From an uncultured Clostridia bacterium (lineage in GTDB: Bacteria > Bacillota > Clostridia > RUG12999): a stretch of DNA of 64,000 nucleotides. Position numbers and translations under genes: made by a program. Shown here piece after piece: positions 40,538 to 64,000 of this stretch (positions are counted from its first letter, which is position 1; the number at the start of each line of letters is the position of its first letter). The DNA lies in contig CAMNSU010000001.1 of NCBI GenBank assembly GCA_946555455.1, positions 112,690 through 176,689 of the forward strand, written 5' to 3'. Below the pieces are notes generated by a model. The model saw only the letters and a program-made list of their open reading frames with translations, was not told where the DNA came from and did not search any database.

Positions 40538-40543
40538 AAAATA

Positions 40544-40741: not shown

Positions 40742-40793
40742 CTGTAGCATTCGGAACCAAAGTTCCCTTCCATAAAATTTTTCATGAAGGGAA

Positions 40794-41201: not shown

Positions 41202-41235
41202 AGTTCCTCCTCTCTCTTGCTGTGGGCATAAAGCA

Positions 41236-42464: not shown

Positions 42465-45400
42465 TTATTTCAGCAACCGATAGACTGCAACAATCGCCTG
42501 TTCGCGCAAGGTGTTTTCCTTGGGTGCAAACGCGCCGTTTTCCATGCCGTTCAGCAGTCCCAATTCTTTTGCCTGCGCCACTGCCGTGCGCGCCCAATCT
42601 GAAATATCCGCTGCATCTGTGAAAGACGCATCGCCGCCCGCCGCACCGGCAGAAGCTGTTTTCAGTTCATATGCCCGCACCAGCATACATGCCATTTCTT
42701 CGCGGGTAACCGGTGCATTCGGGTTTGCGTTGCCGCCGCTGCCCTGCACCAATCCTTTTTCTTTCGCCGCTGCAAACACGCCGGCATACCAATCGTTTGC
42801 CGCAACATCAGCAAACTCGCCATGATATCCGGTCTGCGGCAAGCCCATTGCGCGCACCAGCAATGCCGTGAATTCCGCGCGGGTTGTGGTTTGTGACAAG
42901 CCCAGCGAATCCGCACTCACGCCGTTGACAATGCCATTTTCCACCATCTGAGCGATTTCCTGTCCTGCCCAGTGTCCTTGCAGTTCCGCTTTCATGCCGT
43001 CTGTCAGCTTTGACGTTGGCGTTGGAATAATGGAACCGCCCGCTCCGGGTGTACCCGCACCGCCGCCATGGCTGCCGCCGCCAATGCTGCCTCCGCCAAT
43101 GTTACTGCTGCCGCCACCGCCGTTACCGTGGCCGCCGTCCGGATTCACAGGACGCTGGCTCCCATCGCCGGGCTCCGGCAGTTTTGTATCGTCTCCCAAA
43201 AACGGCGTGCCGAAATAGATGTACGCACCCTCCTGTTGAAACGGAATATTTTCCACATTCGTGCCGTTTTCATCTGTATAGGTCACTTGCGTGATGTTTT
43301 TATCCGTATAAATCGCAATGTTTTTCCAAGTGCCGTCTCCGTTTTTCAGTCCGTCCGCCGCTGTGACATTGACAATATTTCCCTGCCACTGTACGCCCAA
43401 ATCCTTGATTTCGCCGTCCTGCACTTTGATTAAATATTTTTCGGCGGCGGTGTCCACAACGTTGTTGCCGCCGCGGAGAATTGCCTGATTATTTGCGGCT
43501 CCTTTTTTCTCCACCAACATCAAATCAGCGTCTGTTGTGTAGGTACCTGCCGCCCGCTGTACGTTATCGCCGCGGTTTGCATAATAGGTATAGTTTTCCG
43601 TGCTGCCGGTATCCTGATCCAGCACTGTCATTTGGAATGCATTGGCTGTTTCCTCCGGCACGTCCAGCGTGAGGTTCTGCGTTGTCACGCTCTTGCGTTC
43701 CCCTCCTTTGACAGGATAGAGCACGGTGTTAAACGTTGTTGCGCCGCTGAGTTTCTTTTCATAGGTCAAATATTTTGCGTCTACTTCCGTTCCGGCATTT
43801 GGCGCATACCAACCGTCCGTGAGCTGCGCTTTGTCGAAAGCGTGCGCTTGGTTCACGGGCGCCAAAATGAGGTTCGCGCCTTCAAAATGCGTTGTCGCGG
43901 TATTTGTCACCGGATCCAGCGTCAGTCCTGCGTTGGGCAGGAAATGCCAGTTTTGGTCATAGGTATTTTCTCTGCTGTTGTCCGGCTCCACATAGTCCGT
44001 CACAATGGCAAAACCGTTCTTTAAAAACAGAATATCGCGGTAGTTGGTGAAATTGCCGCCGACTGCGGAATTGTTTTTATAGTTCACGGTTTCCGCCCGC
44101 AGGAAGTTATACATGGTGTTAAACTCCCGATTTTCAGGGTGCATACTCCCCTGCTGTCCACCGTTTAAGTTGACAATGGGATTTCCGGCAGGGTCGCTGC
44201 CGCTGCCGCCCTGTCCGCCCTTTTGACTCACACCGTTGATTTCAATGGTGTTATGCGCACGGGTGGAATTCAAAAACAGGTTCATGGGAAGCGATGGGGT
44301 ATAGTTATGATACAGCGGGTCTACCAAGAAATGCTGTCCGTAGGCATAGAAATTCAGACCCAAATCATCATTTTGACCATGGGATTTCACGCCGCCGTCC
44401 GCGTTGATTTGCATGGCAATAGTATTGTTTGCGTTCATTCTGCCCCAATCGGAACGCAAAATCGCTTTTTGTCCAATGTCATAGACAATGGCGGTATATT
44501 CCGGTTTTTCTCCCTCCGCGCCGCCCGACGTTGCCCACATCAAATAGGGGTTTTTGGTGAGTTCATTCAGCGTGCCCCATTTGCCGGCATAGTTGCTGCC
44601 ATGTCCATAGGCGTGTCCCTGCTGCCAGTCGCCCCAAGTCGGCGTGCTGGCGTTCATCAGATACAACGCATATTTTTCCATGAATTCCAGTTCTGCCGCG
44701 CTGAACAGTTCCTTACCGTCCATGCCGACCATTTCCGCATTGTTAATGGAATTCAGGAAGGTACCCAAGTTGAGGTCGGCATAGCCCAGTCCCACCTCAA
44801 TGGAACTGCCGTCATCAAACAAATCTTTCATGACCTTATAGCCCAGACGGTGTTTTGCCGCCGCCAGCCAGCCGCCCTGCATAGACCCGGGCTTATTCGG
44901 GTCGGACAAACCGGTTGCCGGTTTGCCTGCATCGGCAAACTCCATGAAAGGAATCGTTAAGTTGAACAGTCCCTCCGCCTGCAGGGAACCGAAGTTATTC
45001 CCCTCCGAACTATTATTCCATTGTTTCACCAGATAGTCGTTTGTCATCCAAACGTTTTTTAGAATTGCCGTGAATACCTCCGGCGTCATATATTCGCTGG
45101 GCAGCAGCATATCAATCATTTCGGGATAGTATTTCGCCCGCTGTCCCAGATTGTGACAGCCGTCACAATTATAAATTGTGCCGATTGCCGCTTTTTGACG
45201 GACAATGGTGTTCATCAGCATACGGATTGCGTGATACGCATAGACCTCGCCGCCGCTTCTGCCCGTCTGTGTATAGTATAAATAGCATTTTGCAATGTTG
45301 GGCGCATACTGCCATTTGTTCATGTTGTCCGCCCAGGAAGGAATGGTGGTGCTCATGCTGGTCATGTGCGTCAAATGCGGCGCCATTTCGCCGTCATAGG

Positions 45401-46604
45401 AAAAGATATCAATGGTACGGTTCGACCAGTTGATTTCATTTTCCTTCCAGCCCAGTTCCTTGGATTCCCACAGCATAACGTCTTTGCTCACGCGTTCCTG
45501 CGGTGCGGCAGTGGGATTGTCGCTTTTCACCATTTTACCGTTTACCTTCAGCACCGCGCTGTCAATAGAATCTCCCGGTTTCAAATCGGAAAAATCAAAC
45601 AAAAGATAAGCGCGTTTGGTATACTCATCCGCTTCCGCCTGCGTGCCGATAGAACTATAGGATTCCTCCACGCGCAGCGTTTTTTCCGAACCATAGTTTT
45701 TCGTCCGGTTGCCGCCCGCCATAATGGTGGCGTCCGCAATGGGTCTGATGGTTCTGGTGTTGCCGTTGACCGTCAGTTCAATGCGCGGCCCTGTTTCGCC
45801 CGCTTCTCTGCTGTCGAACACAGCTTCATAGCCGTCTTTTTTCAGCGCAATGATGTTGAACGCTTTTTGCGTGGTGACAGCGCCGATTGCCGCTTCCACG
45901 TCTTTGCGCACATCTGCTTCAAAAACCTGTGTTTCCGCTGTCATGTTCCATTTTTCCACCGGTTCGCCATAGCCCCACAGTTTAATCAGGTTTTCAAAAG
46001 TTGCCTGTGCAACCAACCGTTTGCGTTTGTCGGAAACAGCGGCAAGACCGCGGCGGTGTGTTTTGAACGTATTGCGGTAGTATTCCAGAATTTCTTCCTT
46101 CGCCGCTTCATAGTCGCCGCGTTTGGCTGCCGCTTCCGTGGCTGCCAAATCAGAAGAATAGCTATAGTCAAAATAGGGTTGTTTCGTCCATGCGCTGCCG
46201 TCCCATACGCCGAAGAAATCTGCGTCCTGAATGACTTGCGGGTCTTGCATCAATTCGTCATATTGGTCGTATTGGTCAATGGTGGACTGAAAATATTCGT
46301 CCTGCGTCATTTCCTTCGTATCCGGCGCCACCAGCGAAGTCGCCTGAATTTGTTCCGCCACTTCCTGTGATTCCAATGTCATTTCTTCCTCCGATGCACC
46401 GTCTTCCTGCGGTAACACGCTGTTTTCCGTCTCCGGTTCCTGCGCAGCCGGCAGTGCCGCGTTTTCCAAAAGCTGCTGCATGGTCGTCTCCTGCTGCGCC
46501 TCCGGTGCGGGAGCAGTTTCCTGCTCCTGCGCACCGACAGCGCCCGCCGCGCTTACCATCATGCAACCGCTTAGCAATGCCGCTATCCATCTATGATTTT
46601 TCAT
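42465..46604 (-). CDS. SLH-anchored heparinase II/III-like (PL12-like) polysaccharide lyase with a DNRLRE/CBM96-like module
   Basis: Signal peptide; IADATI..NYGS..RAYLLFDFS; DDGSSIEVGLGY, LRSDW, HGQNDDLG, STRAHNTIEING, QNWHF; Gly-rich linker; three SLH (TTRAEF, VTREEMA, TLREQA). Confidence 0.8.
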   Translation of the reverse strand: MKNHRWIAALLSGCMMVSAAGAVGAQEQETAPAPEAQQETTMQQLLENAALPAAQEPETENSVLPQEDGASEEEMTLESQEVAEQIQATSLVAPDTKEMTQDEYFQSTIDQYDQYDELMQDPQVIQDADFFGVWDGSAWTKQPYFDYSYSSDLAATEAAAKRGDYEAAKEEILEYYRNTFKTHRRGLAAVSDKRKRLVAQATFENLIKLWGYGEPVEKWNMTAETQVFEADVRKDVEAAIGAVTTQKAFNIIALKKDGYEAVFDSREAGETGPRIELTVNGNTRTIRPIADATIMAGGNRTKNYGSEKTLRVEESYSSIGTQAEADEYTKRAYLLFDFSDLKPGDSIDSAVLKVNGKMVKSDNPTAAPQERVSKDVMLWESKELGWKENEINWSNRTIDIFSYDGEMAPHLTHMTSMSTTIPSWADNMNKWQYAPNIAKCYLYYTQTGRSGGEVYAYHAIRMLMNTIVRQKAAIGTIYNCDGCHNLGQRAKYYPEMIDMLLPSEYMTPEVFTAILKNVWMTNDYLVKQWNNSSEGNNFGSLQAEGLFNLTIPFMEFADAGKPATGLSDPNKPGSMQGGWLAAAKHRLGYKVMKDLFDDGSSIEVGLGYADLNLGTFLNSINNAEMVGMDGKELFSAAELEFMEKYALYLMNASTPTWGDWQQGHAYGHGSNYAGKWGTLNELTKNPYLMWATSGGAEGEKPEYTAIVYDIGQKAILRSDWGRMNANNTIAMQINADGGVKSHGQNDDLGLNFYAYGQHFLVDPLYHNYTPSLPMNLFLNSTRAHNTIEINGVSQKGGQGGSGSDPAGNPIVNLNGGQQGSMHPENREFNTMYNFLRAETVNYKNNSAVGGNFTNYRDILFLKNGFAIVTDYVEPDNSRENTYDQNWHFLPNAGLTLDPVTNTATTHFEGANLILAPVNQAHAFDKAQLTDGWYAPNAGTEVDAKYLTYEKKLSGATTFNTVLYPVKGGERKSVTTQNLTLDVPEETANAFQMTVLDQDTGSTENYTYYANRGDNVQRAAGTYTTDADLMLVEKKGAANNQAILRGGNNVVDTAAEKYLIKVQDGEIKDLGVQWQGNIVNVTAADGLKNGDGTWKNIAIYTDKNITQVTYTDENGTNVENIPFQQEGAYIYFGTPFLGDDTKLPEPGDGSQRPVNPDGGHGNGGGGSSNIGGGSIGGGSHGGGAGTPGAGGSIIPTPTSKLTDGMKAELQGHWAGQEIAQMVENGIVNGVSADSLGLSQTTTRAEFTALLVRAMGLPQTGYHGEFADVAANDWYAGVFAAAKEKGLVQGSGGNANPNAPVTREEMACMLVRAYELKTASAGAAGGDASFTDAADISDWARTAVAQAKELGLLNGMENGAFAPKENTLREQAIVAVYRLLK

Positions 46605-46617
46605 TGCTTTCCTCTCC

Positions 46618-49600
46618 TTATCTGCCTATCTTATCGAGCACCATGCAAATCACTTTTGCACCTTGTTCTCTTGTTGCAGTGTCTGCCGGCAGGAAATTGC
46701 CGTTTTCACCGTTTAAAATGCCCAGCGCTGCCAACTGCATAACCGCTTCCTGTGCATATGCGCTGATTTGTGCGCTATCGGCAAAAGTGACGTCCGCCGT
46801 ACCGTTCAAAATCTGCGCTCCGCTTTTCTCCAGCGCGCGGCATATCATGGTCGCCATATCTTCTCTGCTGACATATTCTCCTACGCCGAATTCCGTTTCG
46901 CTGATACCGCTGACAATGCCTGCCTGTGCCGCTGCCGCGATATAGGGGCTGTACCATTCGCCCGCCGCTACGTCGGCAAAATCTGTATTTTGTGTACTGG
47001 TGTCCAGTTTGAGCGCTGTAACCAGCAATTTCACAAGCTGCTCCCGCGTCAAATGACCTTCGGGGTCAAACGCGCCGCCACTGCCATTTACAATGCCTTG
47101 CTGCGCCAACCGTTCTATATAGGGATAAGACCAACGCTGCATTTCCACATCATAGAACCGCGTCTCTTGCGGCTGTGGCTGCGGACGAACCGTGTTTTCC
47201 GGCTGAATCACCGGCACCTGCATTCCTGCACCGCCGCTGCCGCCGGAGACGGAACCGCCGCCACCTCCACCGCCGCCGGGGCTCTGACCGGCAGCCGGTT
47301 TCGTTCCTTTGACCGTGTGGTATACCGTGACCGTTTCTGATTTATCACCGCTTCGGAAGGTTGCCGTCAGCGTCACATTTTGGTCATCGCTCTGCCGCGT
47401 TACATGCCCCTGCGCGTCCAGCGCCGCCGCGTTGTCGGACGACCATTCTATTGTACTGCCGAATTTTGTCGCCGTAGGCAGTACGATATCCGTCGTTACT
47501 ATTTTCGGATTGGTGTAGGTAAACGCTTTCACATCTGCCTGCACGCGTTCCTCGTCCGTTGGCATGGAATACAGTTCTATTTCATATATCTTCACAGGCA
47601 TTTCGTCCTGCTGCGTCATGCTAAGACGTACATAGCGTGCGCCGGTCAATGGGAAGCGAATTTCCTGTCCGAACGCCAAAGTATTCCACTGCGTCGCTTT
47701 TGTATAGTTTACATTATCGTTTGACACTTCCAAAACAGCGTTTCCGATATTGCCTTCCGCGTAAAGCACAGCATGTGTGAGCAATTTCTCACTGCCCAAG
47801 TCCAGTGTCACCGCCGCATTTTTCGCCGCCACAGTCCACGCGGTTTCATAGTTTTTGTCCGTCACTGCAACAATGCTGCCTTCCAGCGCCGCGACATTCG
47901 CAGAAGGACGCGCGTCTGCCGCCATGTTTTCCAGCAGGTCTCCCTCTGCCAAAACCGTGAACCGGAATGTCTTTTCCGCAGACAGTTCGCCGTTTTGGAA
48001 TTTCGCCGTCAGCGTCACAGGATGGTTTCTGCCTGCCGGACGCGTCACTACGCCTCCTGCCGACAGCACCGCCGCATCGCTGGTCGTCCAAGTCACCGTC
48101 GTCCCGTTCGGCAACGGTGAGGACGGCAGATTCAAGCTCTCTGTCAGCTTATCCGGCTCCTGCGCTGTTAATGCTTCATAGGTCACAAGCGCAACATCTT
48201 CCGTGAATCCAATCCGCGCGTCTCCTGTCCACAGGACAGTGAAATCAAAGGTCTTGGAAAGAGACAGTCCCGTCTCATCAATTTTCGCCGTGAGCCGTAC
48301 TGTTTTTTCTGCATCCTCCGGTCTTGTTATCGTTCCGTCTGTTCCTATCACGTCCGGCATATCGGATTCCCAATGAATGGGTACGCCGCAGGGCAATGCC
48401 GACGGAAGCGTGAGGTTTCCAGTTATCATTTCCGGTACTTGCTGCGTGAGGTCTGCCGCGCTCAATGCGCTGAATTCTGCCTCAATCTGCGCCGCATAGT
48501 CCGCGTCATATTCGTAGACTTTCATGCCTTTGGTAACGATATACGCGTCTTTGTCGCCTTCTTTTCCTTGATAACTCACCTGTACACCGCCGATACCGCT
48601 GCCATAGGACGGTTTATATGTTTTCTGGGAAGCAAGCTTGCCACCGCTGACATGCTGGAATGCCCCTGTCGCCGTGTCATAATAGATACCAATGGTTTCC
48701 TCTTTGCCATGCGTGTGGTTAATCTTTACTTCACTATCAATCCAGTTTCGACCGCTGCCATTGTTCGCCGCCAGTCCCAGCGTATTGCTGGAGCGGAAAA
48801 TGAACAAAGCTCCTTCGCCATTTGTGCTGTTTAGCACAATAACACGTGCTTCGCCTTTTTTCATATCCGCTTGCAGCGTCATTTCCACATAGTATTTTTT
48901 GCCCGGTTTGATTTTATCTACAAAATTCAGCCGCATATCGGGGCGGTTGTTACTTGGCACTTCATTGTTTGTCAGCTGACCGAACCGTACGCCGCCACCC
49001 TGCGCTGTAGAAGAAGAAACGCCGTCTGTAATCTGCGTAATCGCATAGGTGGACGCGCCGCGCGGGTCTTCCACTTTCACGTTTTCCACCAGTTTCCAAA
49101 TTGCCTTTTCGTCCGGTAAAACCGTGAAGGTGAAATCGCGCGTTTCTGTCGCTGCCGCCGCGCCCGCTTTGGTAAACGCCGCTTGCAGCGTCACTTGCTG
49201 CGCTTCCGTCTCCGGACGTGTCACCTTTCCGTTTGCCGCAATTGCCGTTCCGCTTTTCACGCTCCATGCCACGGTGGTACCACCTTGCAAGGGGCTGACC
49301 GGCAGATTCAAGCTCCATTGCACATGCTCTGCGTCCGGATTCGCGCCCAACAAATAGGCCTCCGTCACGCTTGCAATATCTTGCTGGAACCACTCTTCCG
49401 CCGGATTGCCGGATTCTTTTTTAACCGTGAAGGTAAAGGTTTTCTCCGTAGTATACGTATCGCCCGGACTGGTGAACACCGCTTTTAGCTGCACCGTCTG
49501 GTCTGCGCCGTCCGCTGCCGGACGCGTCACTTTCCCTTGATTGTTTATCCATTCGCCGCCGCTGACAACACTCCATACGACTTTCGTCCCTTTCGGCAGC

Positions 49601-51987: not shown

Positions 51988-52010
51988 TGTTTCCCCATCC
52001 TTTCTACGCG

Positions 52011-54674
52011 TCAGCGGACAATGACGCAAGCTTTCACGTCGTCATTCGGCATGATGATAAACAGCCGGTCTGCGCCGCTGCCGTCAGAACCTACCGGAAT
52101 CGCTTCCCGCAGCGCCGCCGGACGGATTTCCTTCGTTGCTTCTTCATAGAGGAAGGTTGGCGGAGTATTACGCTGCGCAATGCCAATCGCTTCACTGCTG
52201 CCGTCCAAATCAATGGTCGCTTTTATCACCAATATGTTTTTCATCACGTCAATTTCGTCAAAATCAAGACTCTGTAAATATCCGCTGATTTGTTCGTTAT
52301 CCGTTCCCTGATACCGGTAGAAAGTGCCGACGCCTTCGCCAAAGGAATAAATCTTTCTCACATTTTCAATTTTGTCCTGACCGTTTTTCACAAAATAAAT
52401 CAAGTCGCCTTTTTTCAAATCGGTGATGGCGCGGTTTTTGTCAATGATGTTGACCGTTTCATAGGTTTTTTCGCCGCTTTCTTCCACAATGGTCACTTTA
52501 TATTTTGTTTCCATGCTTTCGTCCGCATATTTGCGCAAATCTTTCACCATACCCAGTTTTGCCTTGTTGATGTCAACGTTGGACGCTTGGTTTGCATCCA
52601 TGGCTTCCGTCACCACCAGCAATTTCACTTTTTTGGTTATCGGGTCATATTCATAGCCCTGCGCATTAAATCGCCGTGAGCTGTCCGTGTTGTCGATACG
52701 CACCTGCACCATGTAATCCTCATCATTGTTCACCGTTTCCGGCAGGCAGATTACTTTCGTGTTTGCGTCAATGGCGAAACTCTGAATATTGGTGATACCG
52801 CCGAACACTTTATCGCGCACGTCATATTTGATTTTCTGTCCTATCTCGCCGCCGCGCAGCTCAGCCGATTCAATGGAACGGACTTTACCGTCCGCGCCCA
52901 AGGTATATTTCACTGCCAGTCCGCGGGTGGGGTCAATTTGCTGTGCCAAATTGCTTGCGCCAATGCTCCGCCCGTTAAACGAAACTTTGTCCGCCACGTC
53001 CAAGATTTCCACTTTTTCGTTTTCACACACCAAAACTTTGATTTCGTTTTTGTCGTCTTTATTTTGTTCGTTCTTTTCAATGTCTTCCTGAATCAGTTTT
53101 CCGGTTACCATTTTAATTTGCGTGTTTCCGAATCCGCCTTGCTGTCCAATCTGCGCAATGTAGCCATAGAGCATGGAAGAGGAAAGTTCCTTGGTCTGCG
53201 CCACTTCGCCGCGCCAATCCAGATATGCTGTGACGGAATCGCCGACTTTGACATCTGCTATCACCGCGTCGTCGGCTTCATAGAACGTCCCGCCAATCAC
53301 CATACCGTCCTCTGTGATTTCATCCACGGTTCCTTCCACCGTTTCGCGGCACACCACCAAGCTATACAGCGTTTTATATTCATCAACGGTGACGCTGATG
53401 ATGTCGTCCTTTTGAATATCTTTCACTTCCAGCGTTTTACCGTCTTTGTCTTTGATGTGATATTTCACGTCTTTGTTTTCTTTATCTACATTGATAAGAC
53501 GGCTGCCGTCCAATTCACTGCCCGGCATGAGATAAATCAAGTTTTCGCGCACTTCTTCTACCTGCACGTTTTGGTATTCGTCAATGAAAATCACGTCCGC
53601 CGCTTCGTCTCCGGAATTGTCAATCAAGGTGATGGAACCTTTTTCAAATTGCAGCGCGTTTTCCGTATAGATTTTAATGATCATGCCGTTTTTCACAATC
53701 ACCGGCTGCAGGGCAATGTCAAACCGTTCTTCCCGTTCATTTTCGCCATAATATTTTATCTGAGACATTGTGGTGCTTTTGATGTCATCCTCCCGTAGCG
53801 TGACAATGTGGTTGTTGCGCGTCGGTTTCACGCTCACCAGCGTATAGCGGTCGTCTTCGCCGCGCACGGCATAGAAATCCACTTCCTGTCCCAGCAGCGC
53901 CGCCGCATTTGTCCCGCCTACGCGGTAGATGATGCCGTCAATCATCACTTCGTTGTCTTTCATGTTTTGCACCGGCACGTCCAGCCAAGTATCCGCATTG
54001 GCGGATACGATACCTTTTGCTTTATAGGTTGTTTCATCACTGTTTTCTTTCATGTGGCGTCCGCGAATGGTTTCCCCTTTCGCCACTTCGTAAATCATCT
54101 GTCCGTCCTGTACAGACTGCACCATCAAATCCATATCCAGCGCATTATACAGCAGTTCCACCAAGTCGCCGCGGGTAAAACCGTTTTCCTGTGAAATATT
54201 TTTCAGCAGTCCGTTTTCCGCCGCAACCAGCATGTGCCCTGTCGGGTATCCGCCGCGTCCGTTTGCCACTGCGCCATATCCCAGCGACACCACTACGGTT
54301 TTCACTGCTTCTTCCAAGCTGATAGCATTGTCCGGTCCGAAGGTGCCGTCGCCATAGCCGTTCATCAAATCCATCTGCACGCCAAACGATACTGCGCGTG
54401 CATACCATGCGTCTGCGGGAACGTCTGTGAAATGTTTCTGCACATCCGCAATCTTCGCCGCTTCGTCATATTGCAAAAACTTCAGCAGCGCTTCCATAAA
54501 TTCCGCGCGCGTCAGCGGCGCATCCAATTTATAATCTCCGTTTTCATCTCCCTGAATAATGCCCAGCGAGGTGACGTCAAACAATGCTTTTTCTGTCGCT
54601 GCCTGTGCGAATCCTCCTACGCCGAGCAACATGCAAGCGGTCAGCGTCATCACAATCCATTTGATATGTTTCAT
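52011..54674 (-). CDS. S-layer protein paralog with N-terminal SLH domains
   Basis: Signal peptide; LTRAEF, FTDVPADAWY, FTRGDL; colinear similarity to 7879..10905 over its full length. Confidence 0.82.
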   Translation of the reverse strand: MKHIKWIVMTLTACMLLGVGGFAQAATEKALFDVTSLGIIQGDENGDYKLDAPLTRAEFMEALLKFLQYDEAAKIADVQKHFTDVPADAWYARAVSFGVQMDLMNGYGDGTFGPDNAISLEEAVKTVVVSLGYGAVANGRGGYPTGHMLVAAENGLLKNISQENGFTRGDLVELLYNALDMDLMVQSVQDGQMIYEVAKGETIRGRHMKENSDETTYKAKGIVSANADTWLDVPVQNMKDNEVMIDGIIYRVGGTNAAALLGQEVDFYAVRGEDDRYTLVSVKPTRNNHIVTLREDDIKSTTMSQIKYYGENEREERFDIALQPVIVKNGMIIKIYTENALQFEKGSITLIDNSGDEAADVIFIDEYQNVQVEEVRENLIYLMPGSELDGSRLINVDKENKDVKYHIKDKDGKTLEVKDIQKDDIISVTVDEYKTLYSLVVCRETVEGTVDEITEDGMVIGGTFYEADDAVIADVKVGDSVTAYLDWRGEVAQTKELSSSMLYGYIAQIGQQGGFGNTQIKMVTGKLIQEDIEKNEQNKDDKNEIKVLVCENEKVEILDVADKVSFNGRSIGASNLAQQIDPTRGLAVKYTLGADGKVRSIESAELRGGEIGQKIKYDVRDKVFGGITNIQSFAIDANTKVICLPETVNNDEDYMVQVRIDNTDSSRRFNAQGYEYDPITKKVKLLVVTEAMDANQASNVDINKAKLGMVKDLRKYADESMETKYKVTIVEESGEKTYETVNIIDKNRAITDLKKGDLIYFVKNGQDKIENVRKIYSFGEGVGTFYRYQGTDNEQISGYLQSLDFDEIDVMKNILVIKATIDLDGSSEAIGIAQRNTPPTFLYEEATKEIRPAALREAIPVGSDGSGADRLFIIMPNDDVKACVIVR

Positions 54675-54704
54675 AGTTTTAACCCTACCTTTCTCTCCCT
54701 TTTA

Positions 54705-57700
54705 TTACAGTATTGCCATCAAGCGGTAGAGTACCACCGCCGCCTGTTCCCGCAGCAATCCTGTCTGCGGCAAAAACTCTCCTGTTTCATACCCTTGTAT
54801 GAGTCCTAATTTCACCGCCTGCGCAACCGTTTCACGCGCCCAGCCGGAAATTGTCTCTTCGTCTGTAAACGCTGCACTTTCCTCTGTCTCCGGCAGTGTT
54901 TTTCCACGGTAGGCATAGGCTTTCACCACAATTTTTGCCATTTCTTCCCGCGTGATGAAGTCGTTGGGTCGGAGCAGCCCATCGCTGCCTTCCATCAGTC
55001 CCGCGTCCGCCGCCGCCAAAACAACGCCGGCATACCATGCGTCCGCCGGAACATCACCGAAGGTCGGACGATAGTCCGCCGCACTCAGTTGCAGCACCCG
55101 CGAAAGCATCGCGGCAAATTCGGCGCGCGTCACGCCGTCCGCCAGCCGCAGGGAAATACCGTCACCTTGTAAAATACCGCGGTCTACCATTTCTCCCAGT
55201 TCCGCCTGCGCCCAATGTCCGCTTAGTTCCGCTTTCATGTCCGGCGTGGGCAGCGGCACCGGTTTCACGTTGGTATCGCTAACGATAGGCACCTGCATAC
55301 CGATTCCACCTGTTCCGCCGGAGGAACCTCCGCCGCGGTTTCCACCGCCGCCGCTGCTGCCGCCCGTTCCGCCCGGTGTTCCGGTGCTGCCGCCGCCTGT
55401 TCCTTCAACGCCAACCGTATAGGCTCTCATGTCACTTGCCTGTTGATACTGTGCATCAACGCGCAAATTGATGACTTTTGTCTGTGCGCCGTATGTTGGT
55501 TTCAATATATATACATCGCCCTGCCGTTCCAGTTTCATTAAATCTGTGTTGCTGCTCGTCCAGGTGAGTTCTGAACCAAAGATACCGATTGCCGGCAACA
55601 CGTCCATGTCTATGAATGCCTGCATATACATTCCAATCACCGCTAAGTCTCCCTCCAGCACCTGTGCTGCTGTCGGTGCATAGCTTCCTGTGATTTCGGC
55701 AAACCCTGTGCTGCCTTTTTCAAATGCCTCTATCTTGATTTTAAGCTGTGTTGTCTCGCGCAAAGCGCAGGGCACCGTCAATTCTTCTCCGATTTCCGTA
55801 CCTTGTGCAATCTGTTCATAATCGCCGAGCTTGTTTTTCGCTTCTATGCTGAATTTCGTAATTTTTCCGGTGCTTTTCGGCGCTTCAAACAGCGTCAAAT
55901 GCGATACCACCGTTTCCTGCGGAAAATCAATGGTGATTTCATAGGGTTTTGTGCTTCTGGTAAGGTACGCGGTATCGATATCCTCATCCAGCAGGTTTTC
56001 TATTCCGCCGCCGGATACGCTTTTTCCGGTTGTTTCCACCGCCGCGCCCGTCAATAAGTTACCGCCGCCAAACATAATGCGGAAGGATTTTTCAAACACT
56101 TCACTGCCAAACGCCGCTGTCACGGTTAATGTTGTAATGCCGGACTGCGTCGTGTCTATCGCGCCCGTTTCGGGATCTACCCCCGCTTCGTTGCTGCTCT
56201 GCCACTGTGCCGGCGCGGCAAGCAAGGTCTTTGGCAGTGCAAGGTCTTTGGAGACGCACATGGGTTTTTCATCGGACAGTTTCGTAAAATCAAACTGTTC
56301 GTTTAACAATCCCACTGCAAGTTTGGGACTCATACGCACCTGCGCACTGTGGACGCTCAAACTGCCGCTATCTCCCGCCGCCCATATTTTGTCCAGCGCG
56401 GAAATGGTATTCATGCCTTTGACGTTATGTACTGCGGTTTTCCAGCCTGTTCCCTCATCTACCAGCGCATCCATTGTACCTGTCACGCGGTTGATTTCAA
56501 ACCGGAATTTCACATGCGCTCCCTGCGCAGGATAATTGCCTTCTTTGCGCCACAGCCGCATGGGCGAACCATATGCTATACTATAGGTATTTCCTGTGAA
56601 CTGAATCTGCGCAAACGGCGCATTTTCTTGTCCGAGGGATACCACCATGTTCTGCGCATTTTGTGCGGATACGTCCAGCTCTGCCGCCAAAGGCGCGTTC
56701 AAATCAAATCCGCTCTGTTGTTTCAAATCCGCTGTCCAAGGCTCTGTCTCTACCGTGACAGGCTCCTGCAACACTTCTAAAACCGGAATGTCATCTGCTG
56801 CCGCTTTGACCGTCACGGTGAAAGAAATTTCCACCGGCGGCACCTCTGCCATGCCCTGAATCGCCGCCCGCGCTGTAATCGTCACCGGCGTATCCTCCGC
56901 CTGCCGCGTCACTTCGCCGGTCTGCACATTTATCACATCAGGTTTGTCGCTTTCCCACGTCACATCTGCCGTCAAGTTTCCCGCTGTCGCGCTATCCGGC
57001 AGCGGCATATTCAAATTTCCGGTGATGGCATCGGTCGGTTGGTCTGTGAGCGCGGAGGCATTCACAAAATCCGCAAACTGATAATATTGCAAATAATCTC
57101 CCGCCGCGTTTGTACAATAGATTTCCAGTTCCCAAATGGTGGGGTGGTCGGTATATGTATAGACCTCCAGTTTGACATAGCGCACACAAGCCACAGGAAA
57201 CTCCAGCGTTGTGTTTTTATTGCCTCCCGAAAGCGTTCCGCTTTTCAGTTCATTCCAGTTTTCGCCGTCCACGGAACCCATGATTTTATAATCCTGAATA
57301 CGTGCCGACATTTCATATAGTTTCATTTGGTTAATGGGTTTCACCGCGCCAAGGTCAACGCGAACCCAACGGCAATCCAAATCCGGCGCGCCGTCCGAGG
57401 AAAAGGACGCCCAGCGGGTATCCATTTTGCCGTCCACTATTTTGGATACGTCATAGGTTGCGGAGTGTTCGCTGCTCGCTGTCACCGGACGTTTCAGCGC
57501 CAAATTATCCGTTGTTGTCATGGCTGCTTCCGTTCCGCCCGATACGGTGATTTCGTAAAAAGTGGGTTCCGCACTCCATTCCAATATATTGAACCGCACA
57601 TATCTCGCATCTACTTTTGAAAACGTAATCTCCTTATTCGTGCCCATGCTGTCGCCTTCCGCCGCAGTCGTCCAAACCAAATTGTCCGTCGATACTTCTA

Positions 57701-57995
57701 CGGAATATTTCAGCACGCGCGACTGATATTGTTGGAAGGTCATCTTGTTAATGGCTCGCGTTTGTTCCAAGTCCACTTGAATCCAATATTCCGTCTCGCC
57801 TGCTTTGGACGCCCAACGGGTGGAGGCATCGCCGTCAAACGCTGCGCCCGCACTCCATTTTGCATCGTTCCCATAGATGCTGTTTGTCGTCGCCGGTTTT
57901 CCCAGCGCATAGTTTTCCTCCGCCGCTGCCGCCGGCAGGAAAAACATTCCTGACAAAAGCGCTATGCATAAAATGAATCCAATCCCTTTTTTCAT
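54705..57995 (-). CDS. Non-catalytic surface protein: F5/8 (CBM32-like) domains, Ig-like modules, C-terminal SLH
   Basis: NYALGKP..AFDGDASTRWAS..WIQVDL; NLALKRPVTASS..DGKMDTRWAS; Gly-rich linker; VTRAEF, ITREEMA, LLREQA. Confidence 0.82.
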   Translation of the reverse strand: MKKGIGFILCIALLSGMFFLPAAAAEENYALGKPATTNSIYGNDAKWSAGAAFDGDASTRWASKAGETEYWIQVDLEQTRAINKMTFQQYQSRVLKYSVEVSTDNLVWTTAAEGDSMGTNKEITFSKVDARYVRFNILEWSAEPTFYEITVSGGTEAAMTTTDNLALKRPVTASSEHSATYDVSKIVDGKMDTRWASFSSDGAPDLDCRWVRVDLGAVKPINQMKLYEMSARIQDYKIMGSVDGENWNELKSGTLSGGNKNTTLEFPVACVRYVKLEVYTYTDHPTIWELEIYCTNAAGDYLQYYQFADFVNASALTDQPTDAITGNLNMPLPDSATAGNLTADVTWESDKPDVINVQTGEVTRQAEDTPVTITARAAIQGMAEVPPVEISFTVTVKAAADDIPVLEVLQEPVTVETEPWTADLKQQSGFDLNAPLAAELDVSAQNAQNMVVSLGQENAPFAQIQFTGNTYSIAYGSPMRLWRKEGNYPAQGAHVKFRFEINRVTGTMDALVDEGTGWKTAVHNVKGMNTISALDKIWAAGDSGSLSVHSAQVRMSPKLAVGLLNEQFDFTKLSDEKPMCVSKDLALPKTLLAAPAQWQSSNEAGVDPETGAIDTTQSGITTLTVTAAFGSEVFEKSFRIMFGGGNLLTGAAVETTGKSVSGGGIENLLDEDIDTAYLTRSTKPYEITIDFPQETVVSHLTLFEAPKSTGKITKFSIEAKNKLGDYEQIAQGTEIGEELTVPCALRETTQLKIKIEAFEKGSTGFAEITGSYAPTAAQVLEGDLAVIGMYMQAFIDMDVLPAIGIFGSELTWTSSNTDLMKLERQGDVYILKPTYGAQTKVINLRVDAQYQQASDMRAYTVGVEGTGGGSTGTPGGTGGSSGGGGNRGGGSSGGTGGIGMQVPIVSDTNVKPVPLPTPDMKAELSGHWAQAELGEMVDRGILQGDGISLRLADGVTRAEFAAMLSRVLQLSAADYRPTFGDVPADAWYAGVVLAAADAGLMEGSDGLLRPNDFITREEMAKIVVKAYAYRGKTLPETEESAAFTDEETISGWARETVAQAVKLGLIQGYETGEFLPQTGLLREQAAVVLYRLMAIL

Positions 57996-58035
57996 GTTCT
58001 GTTTCCCTCGCTTTCGGTTCGTTTCTTTTTTTTGC

Positions 58036-59634
58036 CTATTTCGCTTTATCTAACATATTCTGATAGATTTCTATATACCTTGCAAGCCCCAATTCATTCA
58101 GCCGTTCCACATAGGCGTTCCAATCTGTTTCCAGCGATTTTTCTCCGCTGACAAACGCCGCCATGGAGCGTTTCACTTCACTGTCGATTTGCAGTCTGAG
58201 CTGCGTAAACTCATTATATTGATCTGGTTCAAAAAAGGAATCCCGAACGCAATGGTCTATGCCATATGGTTCATAAAGTTCCTTGGTGACTTGATACATC
58301 GTCTGTTCCGTTTGTTCTCCCGTCGGTTCCACGATAATACCCAACCGGATTTTTTCATCCATATAATAAACGCCGATATTCATCCAGCATTTGTTTTGCA
58401 TCACGCCAAACGGCTGCAGCCGCGCCCAAATTGCCTGACCGCCGTCCAGCCCTATTTCGCCTTCTTTGGCATCTCGCCAGCCCACGCCTTCAAATCCGTT
58501 TTGTACCGTGAGCGTTCCTTCTTTGGAATAAAACCAGTCCAGCCACCGTATGGCGATTTCCGGCGTTTTACATGCTTTCGTGATGTTAGCAGACCATTCC
58601 ACCCGTCCATTGTTATACATTGGCGTCTGCCGCAAACCCGATGGTCCCATGAGCGGCGGAATTGCCGCATAGTCCTGATAACGGTTGCTGCCGCCCTCCA
58701 CGTCCGTGAAAATGCCGTACCACAAGGCAGGTACTGCGCCGACCGTTGCCGTTTCGCCCTCTTCTACCATGTTTTTCAGTCGTTTCCTGTCCATAATCGG
58801 GCTGTCTCTGTGCAGCAGCCCCTCGCTGTATAAACGGTTCAAATACCGCAGTCCCTCACGATAAGCAGGCTGATTTGCCGTAAAGATTGCGGTTCCGTTT
58901 TCCTGCATGACTTTGGAACCGTCATAATATAGAAACGCATTCATCAAAAATTCTTCATAACCGTTGGGTCCGACTTCACTCGTTGCCGCCATGGGAATTT
59001 CATCTTTCACGCCGTTTCCGTTGGGGTCGCCGTCCCGAAACGCAACCAACATCCGGTAGAATTCTTCCGTGGTCTGCGGCACGCTTAATCCCAGCTGTTC
59101 CAGCCACTGCCGGTTGACCCACATTTTGCTCGGATAGCGCGTATGATATACGTTATTGACTCTGGGCAATCCAAAAATTTCTCCGTCCGGCGTGGTAATA
59201 CCTTTGCGGATATCCTCTTGTTCCTGCAAAATTTGTTTCAGGTAAACGGAATGTTCTTCAATCAAGTCTTTCAAGTCCAGCAAAACGCCCTGTTTCCCGT
59301 AGACCGTTTGTTCCAATTTGCTGATACCGCTGTCCATCACGATATCAGGATAATCTCCCGACGCAAACATCAGGTTAATCGCCTGCGCTTGGTTGCCGCC
59401 CGCAATCTGCCAATCAATATGTACGCCCGTTTGCTGTTCATACCAAAGTGTGAATTCATTGGTGGACAAATCCTCTATATATTGCGGTTTTGGCAAATAC
59501 ACACTCATTGTCACCGGCTCTTTTGTGACAGGCGCCGGCGGCTGTCCGCCCGTTTCCTGTCCCGCTCCGGTGCAGGCAGTCAGCAGCCCTGCCATTGCCA
59601 CAGCAGCGGCAAGCCATTTTCCTCTTCTTTTCAT
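58036..59634 (-). CDS. Extracellular carbohydrate solute-binding lipoprotein
   Basis: Start MKRRG, lipobox LTAC, LMFASGDYPDI, WVNRQWLEQLGLSVPQTTEE, DPNGNGVKDEIP. Confidence 0.88.
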   Translation of the reverse strand: MKRRGKWLAAAVAMAGLLTACTGAGQETGGQPPAPVTKEPVTMSVYLPKPQYIEDLSTNEFTLWYEQQTGVHIDWQIAGGNQAQAINLMFASGDYPDIVMDSGISKLEQTVYGKQGVLLDLKDLIEEHSVYLKQILQEQEDIRKGITTPDGEIFGLPRVNNVYHTRYPSKMWVNRQWLEQLGLSVPQTTEEFYRMLVAFRDGDPNGNGVKDEIPMAATSEVGPNGYEEFLMNAFLYYDGSKVMQENGTAIFTANQPAYREGLRYLNRLYSEGLLHRDSPIMDRKRLKNMVEEGETATVGAVPALWYGIFTDVEGGSNRYQDYAAIPPLMGPSGLRQTPMYNNGRVEWSANITKACKTPEIAIRWLDWFYSKEGTLTVQNGFEGVGWRDAKEGEIGLDGGQAIWARLQPFGVMQNKCWMNIGVYYMDEKIRLGIIVEPTGEQTEQTMYQVTKELYEPYGIDHCVRDSFFEPDQYNEFTQLRLQIDSEVKRSMAAFVSGEKSLETDWNAYVERLNELGLARYIEIYQNMLDKAK

Positions 59635-59674
59635 GGTGTTCCCCTCCCGCTTTTCCGTTCTCTTCTTGTCTTTT

Positions 59675-59733
59675 ATTTTACTACATTCCCATACACCATA
59701 CAAGAAACAACTCTTTCCAAAACCGTACAAATC
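59675..59733 (-). promoter_or_regulatory. Promoter of the SBP-SLH operon with candidate AraC operator
   Basis: TTGTAT-17-TAAAAT; TTGTTTCTTG overlapping -35. Confidence 0.55.
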
Positions 59734-59830
59734 TTCATTTTTTCCGATATGCAAAAAAAGACCTGTTATGCTCAAAATCCGCACTCATAGGCATTTTAAG
59801 CACTTCAGGTCTTTTATATGGCAAATCATT

Positions 59831-62128
59831 TTAGGCTTTTGGCGCGCCATGATATCCGCTTGGGCTAACGCCCATTTTTTTCTTAAACGCACGCCGGAAT
59901 GTCACGTCGTTGGCATATCCCACCATGGCGGAAATTTCTCCGATTTTGTGCGCGCCCTCCTCAATCAACCGGCACGCCTGTTTAATGCGGAGCCCTTCCA
60001 AATAGGTGGAAAAGTTTTCTCCTGTTTCTTCCTTGAAACAGGTGGAAAGATATTTTTCGTTCAAATTAAATTCAACGGAAAGCTCCGTGAGCGACAGTTT
60101 GCTGTCATTATAGTGCTCGGCAATGTATTGCCGTACCCGCTCCATCACCACGGCGCTTTTGCTTTTCTTTTGCTGCGCCGCAGCGCTGCACAACTGTTTC
60201 AGAATTCCACCCATTTGTTCAAACACATCTGTGATAGACCGACCGTCGTCCGGCGCCGGAATATCAATTGCCGCTTCCGCACTGCCGCCAAGGTGTAGCG
60301 CGTCCTGCACTTTGATAATGGTGGACGTGATTTCCTGCGTGAGCTGTTCCACCATATCCGCCGACAGCGTTCTGCTTAGGAAATTTTCATGATAAATCTC
60401 GTCCAGTGTCTGCACCACTTCTTCATAGTTGCCGACAATGGCATAGTTATACAGCCGCGTTTCCAGTGCGAGCGGATAATAGAACACATTGCCCTCCTGC
60501 GGCAAATCGTCGTACCACAAAACGCTTTTCCTATGACCAATCGCATTGTATTCCACAACTTCGCGCGCCTGCCGGAATCCGTCTGCAATTTCAGTGAGCC
60601 GCTGTGCCGGTCGTCCCGCGCCGAATATCATGGGGATATCATAGGGATAACTCAGCGCAGTTTCAATATGCGATACCACCGCCGCCACCTGTGTTTTCGC
60701 CGCCTCTCCCGTTTCGTCAAGGGACAGCAGCACCGCCACGCCACGCGCGCCCGCGTCACAGATATAACAATAGTTTTCAATAATACTGTATAAATTGTCT
60801 TTCACAAATTCTTTGCCGCTGCGCCCGCCAATCTGCATACGGTATTCCTTGCCCAATCGAATCAGCAAAACGACCTGACATGCGCCGCCCAGCGTCATGT
60901 TGTTCTTTTCCAGCGCTGCGCGGGCTGCCGGTTCTTCTTTATATTCTCCATGCAAAAGTCCGTCAATCACTTTGGACTCAATATATCCCCGCTGCTCCTC
61001 AATTTGACTGCGGAAGGATTCGTTGGCGGAAATCAAGTCGGATACGCCCTCCTGCAACAAGGAAAACTCTGTTTGTTTCAAATTTTTCAGCGAAAATTTC
61101 TCTGTCAGCTTTTTTCCAATAGACCCCGCCAGCCGGTGGAACTCTTTGCTGCGTTTATAGGTGATATAGATACATACCGCCATACCTGCCAGCACAGTCA
61201 ATGTATAAATCAACAGCAGCAGTGCGTTAATGAACCGCACTTTTTCCAGCACCACTGCTTTGGGCACCAGCAATACCACCTGCCAGCCATTGCCCACGCT
61301 GGTCTGTTTCATCAGATACATGCTTTTACCGTCCACTTTGTATTCCGATTGCAAGGATTCTCCCTCTAGCTGCTGCAAATGTTCCAAAATAAAATCCCGA
61401 TGTTTTTGGTCGGAGGAAAGCAGCAATTCGTTTTTGTTGTCCAAAATATACAGCGCGCCCTGATTGCCGCCCAGCAGACTGTCGAACAAACTCATCAGTT
61501 CGCGGCTGTCAATAATAACATTCACCTGTCCGCGCATCACGCCGGAAGCGAGCAGCGGCGCCGATTGCGTATAGGTAATGGCATTGCAATTTTTGTCATT
61601 CACCAACATTTGCTGCGCCGGCTGGTATCCGCGCCGCCAATCGCCGCTTCGCAGCGCTGCCGCCCATGTTTCTTCCGTCACGCGGTCAATCACCAGTCCA
61701 TTGCCATAATAGGTATCTGCGCCGCGGTAAATTCCTGCTTTGTCAATCACAACGTCCAGCGGCTGATGGTATAGATAAATATTTTTCACCCAATTTTCAT
61801 CAAACGAATAGGAATTCAGCAGCCGCTGAATGTCCATCAGCTTTGTCACATTACCCGCGTCCCGATAGAAAAAATCCGCCATTTCCGCGTTCATCAACAT
61901 GCTGTCCACAACTTCTTCAATTTGGCTGAGCTGGTTGTCAATCAACTCCATGTTGTTTTGCAGCACAATTTCATAGGACCCCAGCGTTTCCTCCTTATAT
62001 TGGCGGACAATTGCCTGATTTGCTAAAAATACCGTGATAATCGGAATTAACATCACACCAAGATAGGGAATGATAAAACGGACAAACACTTGCAGAAAAT
62101 CCCGCGGAACACTTGTTTTTTGACGCAT
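59831..62128 (-). CDS. Membrane-spanning AraC-family regulator (YesS-like)
   Basis: Two TM helices (FIIPYLGVMLIPII; LLLLIYTLTVLAGMAVCIYI); C-terminal YLSTCFKEETG..LRIKQAC..VGYANDVTFRRAFKK; promoter TTGACA-17-TATAAT at 62203-62175. Confidence 0.88.
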   Translation of the reverse strand: MRQKTSVPRDFLQVFVRFIIPYLGVMLIPIITVFLANQAIVRQYKEETLGSYEIVLQNNMELIDNQLSQIEEVVDSMLMNAEMADFFYRDAGNVTKLMDIQRLLNSYSFDENWVKNIYLYHQPLDVVIDKAGIYRGADTYYGNGLVIDRVTEETWAAALRSGDWRRGYQPAQQMLVNDKNCNAITYTQSAPLLASGVMRGQVNVIIDSRELMSLFDSLLGGNQGALYILDNKNELLLSSDQKHRDFILEHLQQLEGESLQSEYKVDGKSMYLMKQTSVGNGWQVVLLVPKAVVLEKVRFINALLLLIYTLTVLAGMAVCIYITYKRSKEFHRLAGSIGKKLTEKFSLKNLKQTEFSLLQEGVSDLISANESFRSQIEEQRGYIESKVIDGLLHGEYKEEPAARAALEKNNMTLGGACQVVLLIRLGKEYRMQIGGRSGKEFVKDNLYSIIENYCYICDAGARGVAVLLSLDETGEAAKTQVAAVVSHIETALSYPYDIPMIFGAGRPAQRLTEIADGFRQAREVVEYNAIGHRKSVLWYDDLPQEGNVFYYPLALETRLYNYAIVGNYEEVVQTLDEIYHENFLSRTLSADMVEQLTQEITSTIIKVQDALHLGGSAEAAIDIPAPDDGRSITDVFEQMGGILKQLCSAAAQQKKSKSAVVMERVRQYIAEHYNDSKLSLTELSVEFNLNEKYLSTCFKEETGENFSTYLEGLRIKQACRLIEEGAHKIGEISAMVGYANDVTFRRAFKKKMGVSPSGYHGAPKA

Positions 62129-62254
62129 TTTCTCTCCCCTCCCTGTTTTGGCATTTCTTTTTTCATCTATCTCTATTATACTGTCTTGTACTTTTCCTGT
62201 CAAACATTTTGTAAAAATAACTGTATTTACCTTTGTCAAGTGATGGTTTATCTG

Positions 62255-62334
62255 CTTTTTGTTTGTTTTACCTTACTTTTTGTTTGTTTTTTTACGAATT
62301 GTATCTTGTGTTCCACTGCCTTTTTTTATATAAT
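62255..62334 (+). promoter_or_regulatory. Fucosidase promoter with 21-bp-spaced direct repeats
   Basis: CTTTTTGTTTGTTTT at 62255 and 62276; TTGTATCTTG at 62299; TTGTGT-17-TATAAT. Confidence 0.65.
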
Positions 62335-62390
62335 GAATTTTGTAATTAAATCTACGGAAACATCCGTTGATTTTTAGGAGGAAATATTTT

Positions 62391-63998: not shown

Positions 63999-64000
63999 AC

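Follow-up and report, generated by a model that had tools for sequence, protein, structure and literature searches.

The subject of this analysis is a 64,000-nucleotide (nt) window of contig CAMNSU010000001.1 (positions 112,690 to 176,689) from the draft genome of an uncultured Clostridia bacterium, GCA_946555455.1, and within it the minus-strand locus at 42465-62128, which consists of six co-oriented open reading frames (ORFs) in the order araC, SBP, p1096, p887, p1789 and lyase. In our view this locus probably represents one copy of a module for polysaccharide degradation at the cell wall, which recurs within the class and is restricted to it. A preliminary description of the window had read it as an inducible surface patch, in which binding proteins on Ig stalks, anchored by SLH domains, deliver an acidic glycan to a lyase, the whole being built into the S-layer by a dedicated subunit. 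That interpretation is partly supported. It appears right in kind, as a non-cellulosomal, SLH-anchored apparatus that captures and cleaves an acidic glycan and includes an S-layer-like protein of its own, but it was too narrow, since the arrangement is a modular system that is found genome-wide and class-wide. The six genes, each taken to begin at the earliest plausible start codon that follows a Shine-Dalgarno-like GGAGG, are as follows.

araC, 59831-62128, minus strand: membrane AraC-family regulator of 765 aa
SBP, 58036-59637, minus strand: lipoprotein solute-binding protein (SBP_bac_1) of 533 aa
p1096, 54705-57995, minus strand: CBM32/Ig/SLH protein of 1096 aa
p887, 52011-54674, minus strand: protein of 887 aa with N-terminal SLH
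p1789, 46618-51987, minus strand: CBM32/Ig/SLH protein of 1789 aa
lyase, 42465-46604, minus strand: PL12-like (heparinase III-like) protein of 1379 aa, predicted to be SLH-anchored

Recurrence of the locus type within the genome

We used the frequency and spacing of p887-like, SLH-bearing and PL12-like ORFs across the genome (G000, a 3,125,272-base draft in 181 contigs, 97.6% complete) as a measure of how often the arrangement recurs, searching ORFs of at least 80 aa with hidden Markov models (HMMs) made from the window's own domains. The search returned 124 SLH ORFs, 40 ORFs with a p887-like body and 20 PL12-like catalytic regions. A co-oriented SLH ORF lay within 150 nt of 32 of the 40 p887-like ORFs, with a median ORF-to-ORF gap of 7.5 nt across 36 p887-like/SLH pairs, and of the 124 SLH ORFs, 91 either belonged to the p887-like group or had one of its members no more than 9 kb away. 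Seen from the enzymes, a co-oriented p887-like ORF was present within 9 kb of 17 of the 20 PL12-like ORFs and of 12 of the 13 that bear SLH domains; for the remaining one the contig extends only 1159 nt upstream. These linkage counts are lower bounds, as many of the misses lie at contig ends. The singular patch of the preliminary description therefore gives way to a locus that is one of about 40 similarly built loci, and the p887 family is the most constant marker of these loci.

Pfam searches of 20 neighbours of p887-like genes gave mostly CBM32/Ig/SLH giants without a catalytic family, together with two PL8 lyases, a GDSL esterase carrying CBM32 and SLH domains, a Hepar_II_III_C/DUF4962 protein and a metallophosphoesterase. 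All seven small partners of p887-like genes that were searched (530-579 aa) had C-terminal SLH only. Two-gene cassettes also occur (for example C2:74802-78967, C6:8683-13012 and C8:5894-10228), in which the gene for an SLH protein of 480-580 aa, one that lacks a recognisable domain at its N-terminus, is followed directly by a p887-like gene, the two often overlapping by a few bases.

Conservation across the class and diversification with the enzyme

Synteny had been proposed as the check on the preliminary description, and it bore the description out, the full six-gene order being kept within the genus and three further families of the class sharing a core of p887-like protein, giant CBM32-Ig-SLH protein and PL12-SLH lyase.

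G003, same genus: identical six-gene order
G042, another family: araC, SBP, 2-kb gap, p887-like gene, CBM32 protein, 1918-aa giant, lyase
G120, another family: araC, SBP, gap, 1330-aa binder, p887-like gene, lyase
G036, another family: p887-like gene, 1537-aa giant, lyase

Orthologues of the lyase were found in four of four same-genus genomes, at 82-95% identity. The p887 body had matches in 52 of 200 sampled genomes of the class, representing 36 of 134 genera, with 34 matches in G042, nine in G036 and two in G120. When 201 genomes sampled across the phylum were searched, matches at E <=1e-8 were confined to G000 and one genome of the same class.

To relate the p887 family to its loci we placed 37 p887-like bodies of G000 and four from other genomes on a tree (IQ-TREE quick search, LG+G4). 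The PL12-adjacent members fell into one clade of 18, comprising 17 that are PL12-adjacent and one from a 3.9-kb contig, with an SH-aLRT of 99. The PL12 label required four changes on this tree against a mean of 13.9 when labels were shuffled, and none of 500 shuffles gave a value as low. Proteins from G042, G120 and G036 were nested within the same clade. On the basis of this tree, the p887 family appears to have co-diversified with the enzyme class of its locus.

The number of paralogues (40 here, 34 matches in G042) and their divergence (20-37% identity to p887) would also be expected if they were interchangeable S-layer variants, serving evasion of phage or immunity and placed in these loci by accidents of duplication. 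Comparison of the two same-genus genomes points the other way, as p887 is the most conserved of the six operon proteins between G000 and G003 (97.1% identity, compared with 96.3% for araC, 94.4% for SBP, 93.1% for the lyase, 92.1% for p1096 and, for p1789, 90.1% in the C-terminal part and 69.0% in the N-terminal part). The paralogues are moreover old, with the locus type kept across families, and the tight, co-oriented spacing with SLH genes described above also speaks against accident. No sign of switching was noticed in passing, although no search aimed at switching was made. We regard such an origin as highly improbable.

p887 as an S-layer-like protein

Four proteins of the locus, p1096, p887, p1789 and the lyase, have SLH matches above the Pfam cut-off. 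SLH domains of this type bind pyruvylated secondary cell-wall polymer, and the genome has one match to the CsaB-type pyruvyl transferase family PF04230 (G000:C51, E 5e-35). Pfam was run on whole proteins and on 46 overlapping 220-aa tiles of these four. In p887 a signal peptide and the SLH region (24-182) precede a body of about 700 aa, which is modelled as an all-beta array of small OB-like barrels. SLH was the only Pfam family found in p887, and seven of its eight tiles had no family at all. The AlphaFold model, made from 29 family sequences, has a pLDDT of 80.4, and its residues 24-182 match the SLH domains of SpaA (Z 17.8, rmsd 2.6, 153 residues aligned) and Sap (Z 15.4). There was no catalytic fold among the matches to the whole p887 model. 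An atlas search of the body gave leads below 0.9 only, and a word-index homologue search returned few proteins, 15 of them for the p887 body. Foldseek matches of the whole model to DDB1 and bS1 had TM scores below 0.12 and were discarded as repeat-of-barrels noise.

A paralogue of p887 lies in the window outside the locus.

slp1020, 7879-10905, minus strand: protein of 1008 aa with N-terminal SLH followed by a body

By BLASTP, p887 and slp1020 share 25% identity over 620 aa (E 2e-36), an alignment that reaches past the SLH domain. The slp1020 gene (window 7879-11230) has two strong promoter-like sites with extended -10 elements (12/12 and 11/12 consensus) and a terminator directly downstream. 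When we scored codon adaptation against 17 ORFs of the ribosomal-protein cluster and ranked 1776 ORFs, slp1020 came sixth and p887 thirty-first, followed by the lyase (163), p1789 (269), p1096 (362), araC (634) and SBP (969). From codon adaptation, promoters and architecture together, slp1020 is likely the main S-layer protein. In the tree it pairs with a 1301-aa paralogue (C9:12639-16544), and both are without an SLH neighbour. The S-layer paralogue that the preliminary description placed in the operon is thus borne out, in that p887 is homologous to the window's best S-layer candidate beyond the SLH domain.

Another way to view the p887 family is as a set of surface glycan-binding proteins, SusD/E/F-like and specific to a substrate class, whose OB-like barrels bind glycan or oligosaccharides without any need for a protein complex. 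The OB-like barrels of the modelled body are as compatible with binding as with a structural function: its fold matches are of OB type only (Z 6.6-8.2, at residues 702-778, 444-499 and 215-355), this fold class includes oligosaccharide binders, and solved S-layer assembly domains are absent among the matches. The grouping of p887 relatives by the enzyme class of their locus could likewise be read as if they followed the substrate. However, the homology over about 620 aa is to a protein that bears the hallmarks of a main S-layer gene (rank 6 of 1776, tandem promoters, monocistronic), and p887 itself has a codon adaptation above that of its neighbours, as would suit a high-copy structural part. 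In addition, no CBM or lectin family was detected in seven of the eight p887 tiles, and these loci already have many CBM32 modules. We therefore think the glycan-binding role rather unlikely, and take an S-layer-type structural role for p887 as the working interpretation.

The lyase

The lyase begins with a Q/E-rich N-terminus, followed by a CBM96/DNRLRE-type module (~283-437), a toroid and beta-sandwich (~450-1000), a Gly-rich linker and three SLH repeats (1209-1378). Pfam families above cut-off were CBM96, Hepar_II_III_N, Hepar_II_III_C and SLH. The CBM96 match is partial (PF24517, 58.4 bits against a cut-off of 26, covering profile positions 2-95 of 164 only), and the NCBIfam DNRLRE domain scored 40.8 bits. 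According to PMC9971899, CBM96 was defined as an alginate-binding module. A segment labelled 'lyaseC' was considered as a docking domain and rejected, as it corresponds to the end of the PL12 beta-sandwich plus the Gly-rich linker.

A single-sequence search of the PDB with the lyase gave SLH matches only. We then used a profile from 16 paralogous catalytic regions, which gave the following matches.

4mmh / 4mmi, heparinase III (PL12): E 8e-58, over about 476 profile positions
5jmd, heparinase III (PL12): E 1.6e-49
4fnv, heparinase III (PL12): E 1e-32
6jpn, PL39 alginate lyase: E 3e-16
3a0o, PL15: E 2e-6

The catalytic residues of 4MMH are given as Asn240, Tyr294 and His424 in PMC12088678. Through the profile alignment this triad maps to N537, Y608 and H742 of the lyase; all 16 sequences have the Tyr and the His, and at least 90% have the Asn. 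Because of the PDB profile matches and the retained triad, we conclude that the lyase is PL12-like and probably an active, beta-eliminating enzyme. The SLH-bearing lyase of the preliminary description thus stands, with its assignment refined to PL12-like (heparinase III).

To our knowledge, the characterised PL12 enzymes act on heparan sulfate, which is the sole activity known for the family. The genome has four sulfatase matches above cut-off, against 20 PL12-like genes in 3.1 Mb. Taken together these two facts leave the substrate class uncertain; the substrate is probably an acidic glycan with a heparan sulfate- or heparosan-like linkage that is mostly unsulfated. The genome also has 10 GH88 matches, several of which adjoin PL12 loci.

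At two other places in the genome, C13:1150-9321 (2723 aa) and C111:2677-7620 (1647 aa), modules of the Ig-repeat giants and a PL12 lyase are fused in one ORF. Since both are joined there in single ORFs, these fusions would tie the binders functionally to the lyase.

The giant binders p1096 and p1789

In p1096, Pfam recognised three CBM32 (F5/8 type C) domains, amounting to 172 bits over three stretches, along with two aBig_2 domains and SLH. The order from the N-terminus is signal peptide, CBM32 (33-148), CBM32 (170-289), aBig_2 (322-396) and a unique domain of about 160 aa (401-560), and thereafter an Ig-like domain (560-645), a CBM32-like domain (666-748), aBig_2 (~800-863) and three SLH repeats (926-1093). 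A PDB sequence search with residues 381-670 found nothing below E 0.01, and a homologue search with residues 395-655 gave seven orthologues only.

The larger protein, p1789, has three CBM32 domains (118 bits over three stretches), seven aBig_2 domains and three SLH repeats by Pfam. Behind the signal peptide come two CBM32 domains, an [aBig_2-aBig_2-X] block that is present twice, two further aBig_2 domains, CBM32, aBig_2, a Gly-rich linker and the three SLH repeats. The [aBig_2-aBig_2-X] block is a tandem duplication at 48424-50698, the two blocks being 74% identical and the two copies of domain X (about 220 aa) 75%. The orthologue in G003 (1396 aa) has one copy of X where p1789 has two, and a relative's contig (run X2) skips 1311 nt inside p1789, from 49386 to 50698. 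The block thus varies in copy number between strains.

Domain X had no Pfam match in the tiles, and a PDB sequence search with p1789 551-965 found nothing below E 0.01. Its model, made from only three sequences and with a pLDDT of 53, is a ConA-like jelly roll (Z 9.3-10.9), which indicates fold class only. The fold matches of this low-confidence model include non-catalytic domains (GH43 C-terminal domains, galectins and sialidase CBMs) and enzymes (GH16, PL7, PL14 and PL20).

This raises the possibility that the giants hide enzymes, a small jelly-roll lyase or hydrolase being represented by X, which is present twice, or by the unique 160-aa domain in p1096, so that the operon would encode several enzymes. 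The GH16, PL7, PL14 and PL20 enzymes match the X model as well as the non-catalytic domains do, and the atlas leads for X include GH16-like and PelX_N clusters, all of them below 0.9. However, galectins, GH43 C-terminal sandwiches and sialidase CBMs reach the same Z range, the model is poor, and PDB sequence matches were absent for both the X region and the p1096 unique domain. No catalytic Pfam family was found at E 0.01 or better in any p1096 or p1789 tile, and the difference of one against two copies of X between strains is typical of binding repeats. We accordingly judge hidden enzymes in the giants improbable, and from its modelled fold read X as a putative binding repeat. With respect to the preliminary description, Pfam on whole proteins and on tiles agrees with its statement that only the lyase has a recognisable catalytic family. 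As for hidden catalytic domains, which it had named as the finding that would speak against it, the Pfam results favour its position, while the jelly-roll fold of X is one that is also found in enzymes.

The six locus proteins had no cohesin or dockerin match in Pfam searches of whole proteins and tiles, and no ABC permease family matched among them either, as had been stated from the outset. Elsewhere in the genome (C87, C174, C132, C9; C142, C63) there were four dockerin matches above cut-off and two cohesin-like matches below cut-off in very large SLH ORFs, and the genome may hold a small cohesin-dockerin set away from the locus.

Transcriptional organisation of the locus

The preliminary description had counted five co-oriented genes, separated by 13-40 nt, between one upstream promoter and one terminator. 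The spacing holds for the last five genes (40 nt between SBP and p1096, 30 nt between p1096 and p887, 23 nt between p887 and p1789, and 13 nt between p1789 and the lyase); the unit itself, however, has six genes with araC included, which is separated from SBP by 193 nt. The sites that frame it are these.

sigma-70-type promoter-like site, 62203-62175, minus strand: TTGACA, 17 nt, TATAAT; 46 nt before the araC start
araC-SBP spacer, 59638-59830, minus strand: 193 nt
predicted intrinsic terminator, 42443-42415, minus strand: hairpin at 42443-42420 with an 8-bp stem (7 G-C) and an 8-nt loop, then TTTTT

The site at 62203-62175 is the only 12/12 sigma-70 consensus within 44001-64000. It sits upstream of araC and not directly upstream of the remaining five genes, so that of the original claim the terminator after the lyase stands and the promoter directly before the five genes does not. 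Scanning the minus strand of the araC-SBP spacer gave no sigma-70-like site and no terminator-like site, and a spacer bare of both would be compatible with read-through or with an activator-dependent promoter. The terminator hairpin begins about 20 nt past the lyase stop, and the gene downstream of it has its own promoter-like site (42339-42311). Neither total number of sites was above chance (22 promoter-like sites compared with 19.7 +/- 4.4 in shuffles, and 27 terminator-like sites compared with 26.0 +/- 4.9), and therefore only the position and quality of the araC promoter and the lyase terminator count.

Run X1, which is on record as RNA, contained contigs identical to the window within the genes for the lyase, p1789 and p887; those listed fall between 43008 and 52609, and 12 of 15 have 99% identity or more. 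We take them as a weak hint of expression; the parts of the stretch that X1 does not cover carry no meaning. Runs X2 and X3, at 90-95% identity, are probably DNA of relatives.

The regulator, the solute-binding protein and uptake

In the AraC protein, hydrophobic segments at 18-36 and ~292-322 flank an extracytoplasmic part of about 255 aa, and the C-terminal side has a GGDEF_2-like region and then, at the C-terminus, an HTH_18/HTH_AraC domain. The signal peptide of the SBP ends in the lipobox LLTAC. No ABC permease was found in the locus, and on the contig no PF00528 match lies closer than 100 kb. The whole genome has 56 PF00528 matches, 39 SBPs of the focal type and 25 AraC proteins of at least 600 aa.

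We judged permease linkage for the 23 SBP genes with more than 3 kb of contig to each side. Two permease matches were present within 3 kb in 16 of the 23 and none in the other seven, among which is the focal SBP. All seven permease-less SBP genes have SLH ORFs within 8 kb, and in four of them a long AraC lies no more than 4 kb away. That the locus has no permease is thus real, but it is a minority variant and not a design principle, as most of the judged paralogous SBP loci do carry permeases.

These counts bear on whether the SBP is a sensor partner of AraC at all, or an ordinary uptake part that docks on ABC permeases encoded elsewhere. Adjacency to two permease genes at 16 of 23 loci marks the family as primarily a transporter part, and a plain uptake role is quite possible; our doubt about it is mild. 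The focal gene, however, belongs to the minority without permeases, of which more than half lie close to a long membrane AraC, and signalling by an orphan SBP has precedent: according to PMC10384115, the orphan SBP CuaD of Ruminiclostridium cellulolyticum works with a (two-component) signalling system. The uptake and sensing roles of the SBP are in any case mutually compatible.

Proposed working of the locus

The arrangement that we propose would operate as follows. The membrane AraC, alone or with the lipoprotein SBP, would sense released oligosaccharide and activate the genes. p1096 and p1789, for which the SLH domains at the C-terminus would serve as anchors, would hold a glycan containing uronic acid at the surface by means of CBM32 and jelly-roll modules on Ig stalks, and the lyase, anchored in the same C-terminal manner as the binders, would cleave the glycan so held. 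p887, anchored at its N-terminus, would be a locus-specific structural partner of S-layer type, making room for the stalked proteins in the wall and S-layer or holding them there. The unsaturated products would be bound by the SBP and then imported through permeases encoded elsewhere, or might only signal. Within this scheme, both the hand-over of glycan from binders to lyase and the building of p887 into the S-layer are steps that we infer.

Several points weigh against this account. The counts on which the recurrence rests were obtained from a draft in 181 contigs, with crude ORF calling and HMMs of our own making, and the p887 tree was a quick search with several long branches. The fold matches of the p887 body are generic OB-like barrels (Z <=8.2 in a whole-chain search), and the matches listed for the model of all 887 residues, a weak test for single domains, included no solved S-layer assembly domain. 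The small number of sulfatases for 20 PL12 paralogues suggests other or unsulfated substrates. The perfect consensus ahead of araC would suggest that at least this gene is transcribed constitutively and not by induction, and the X1 contigs are short, none spans a gene junction, and carry-over of DNA is possible. Finally, the locus has no permease of its own for uptake.

Going one step further, the S-layer as a whole might be a mosaic, in which each polysaccharide locus brings its own p887-family tile, co-assembling with the SLH binders and enzymes of that locus to form substrate-specific patches or ports. We put this forward tentatively, as a possibility that we consider doubtful.

Comparison with known systems

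The lyase has the catalytic toroid, beta-sandwich and triad in common with heparinase III of B. thetaiotaomicron (BT4657, 4MMH/4MMI) and Pedobacter heparinus (4FNV). The known PL12 enzymes come from Bacteroidota, are periplasmic, have a single domain and about 650-700 aa, and act on heparan sulfate, whereas the focal lyase has 1379 aa, a CBM96/DNRLRE-type module and C-terminal SLH, and is one of 20 paralogues. SLH-anchored glycoside hydrolases and lyases are known from Caldicellulosiruptor, Thermoanaerobacterium, Paenibacillus and Monoglobus pectinilyticus, and like these the focal enzyme is multidomain with CBMs, has three C-terminal SLH repeats and is without cohesin or dockerin. We know of no description of a locus-specific S-layer-like partner gene for those systems.

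In its architecture (signal peptide, SLH and an all-beta body of about 700 aa) p887 is the same as the S-layer proteins Sap and EA1 of Bacillus anthracis and SpaA of Paenibacillus alvei. Its body differs in having no similarity to solved assembly domains that was detectable in a whole-chain search, and where those organisms have one or two lattice proteins there are 40 paralogues here, each tied to a degradative locus.

With the polysaccharide utilisation loci (PULs) of Bacteroidota the shared logic is that of a regulator, surface binders, a surface enzyme and a paralogous marker that is present once per locus and has diversified with substrate. The differences are that there is no outer membrane, that anchoring is by SLH to a wall polymer, and that uptake, where present, is by an ABC system; no SusC or SusD family was among the Pfam matches of the six proteins. 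Gram-positive PULs likewise have regulator, SBP and carbohydrate-active enzymes (CAZymes) clustered, but the focal locus has no permease and its enzymes are SLH-anchored. In the three-component sensing of R. cellulolyticum (PMC10384115), an orphan SBP also stands beside the regulator; the focal regulator, unlike that of the CuaD system, is a one-component membrane AraC and not a kinase/response-regulator pair.

Neighbouring genes

At 2-7107 on the minus strand the window has a second locus of similar style, also without permeases.

membrane AraC, 4732-7107, minus strand
GNAT protein, 4027-4716, minus strand
PAS-GGDEF protein, 3003-3947, minus strand
SBP, 1157-2737, minus strand
PL8 lyase, 2-937, minus strand, running off the window

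Just beyond the window, at C1:103238-110751, are another p887-like gene and a 1603-aa Ig/CBM32/SLH giant. A GH29 alpha-L-fucosidase gene (62367-63998, plus strand) is divergent from araC and runs off the window. Downstream of the terminator, at 36444-42276 on the minus strand, are four genes that are linked to the operon by position only. They encode a cytoplasmic protein with a sub-threshold GH43 match (the gene having its own promoter), a putative lipoprotein of 135 aa, a DUF255/thioredoxin-like protein, which also has a weak epimerase-like part, and a DUF2264 protein. These four may process imported products.

Significance

SLH-anchored CAZymes and Gram-positive PULs are already known. An S-layer-like family with one member per degradative locus, diversified with enzyme class and kept in several families of uncultured Clostridia, was not described in the largely open-access literature that we searched; related topics searched without finding such a description were SLH with CBM32 and lyase, S-layer and PUL paralogues, PL12 in Firmicutes, Gram-positive PULs with SLH, and the SLH and S-layer proteins of Monoglobus.

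The unusual, 20-fold expansion of PL12-like genes in 3.1 Mb, where sulfatases are few, suggests that PL12 has substrates beyond heparan sulfate. In the orphan SBP and the membrane AraC there would be a one-component counterpart of three-component sugar sensing that can be tested. If the p887 family is indeed a structural partner, it would show how large stalked enzymes fit into an S-layer, and its genes could be used as markers of polysaccharide loci in these genomes. Were the mosaic S-layer to prove true as well, the p887 family would mark Gram-positive PULs as SusC/SusD does in Bacteroidota, and could be used to locate such loci in uncultured Clostridia and to sort them into classes.

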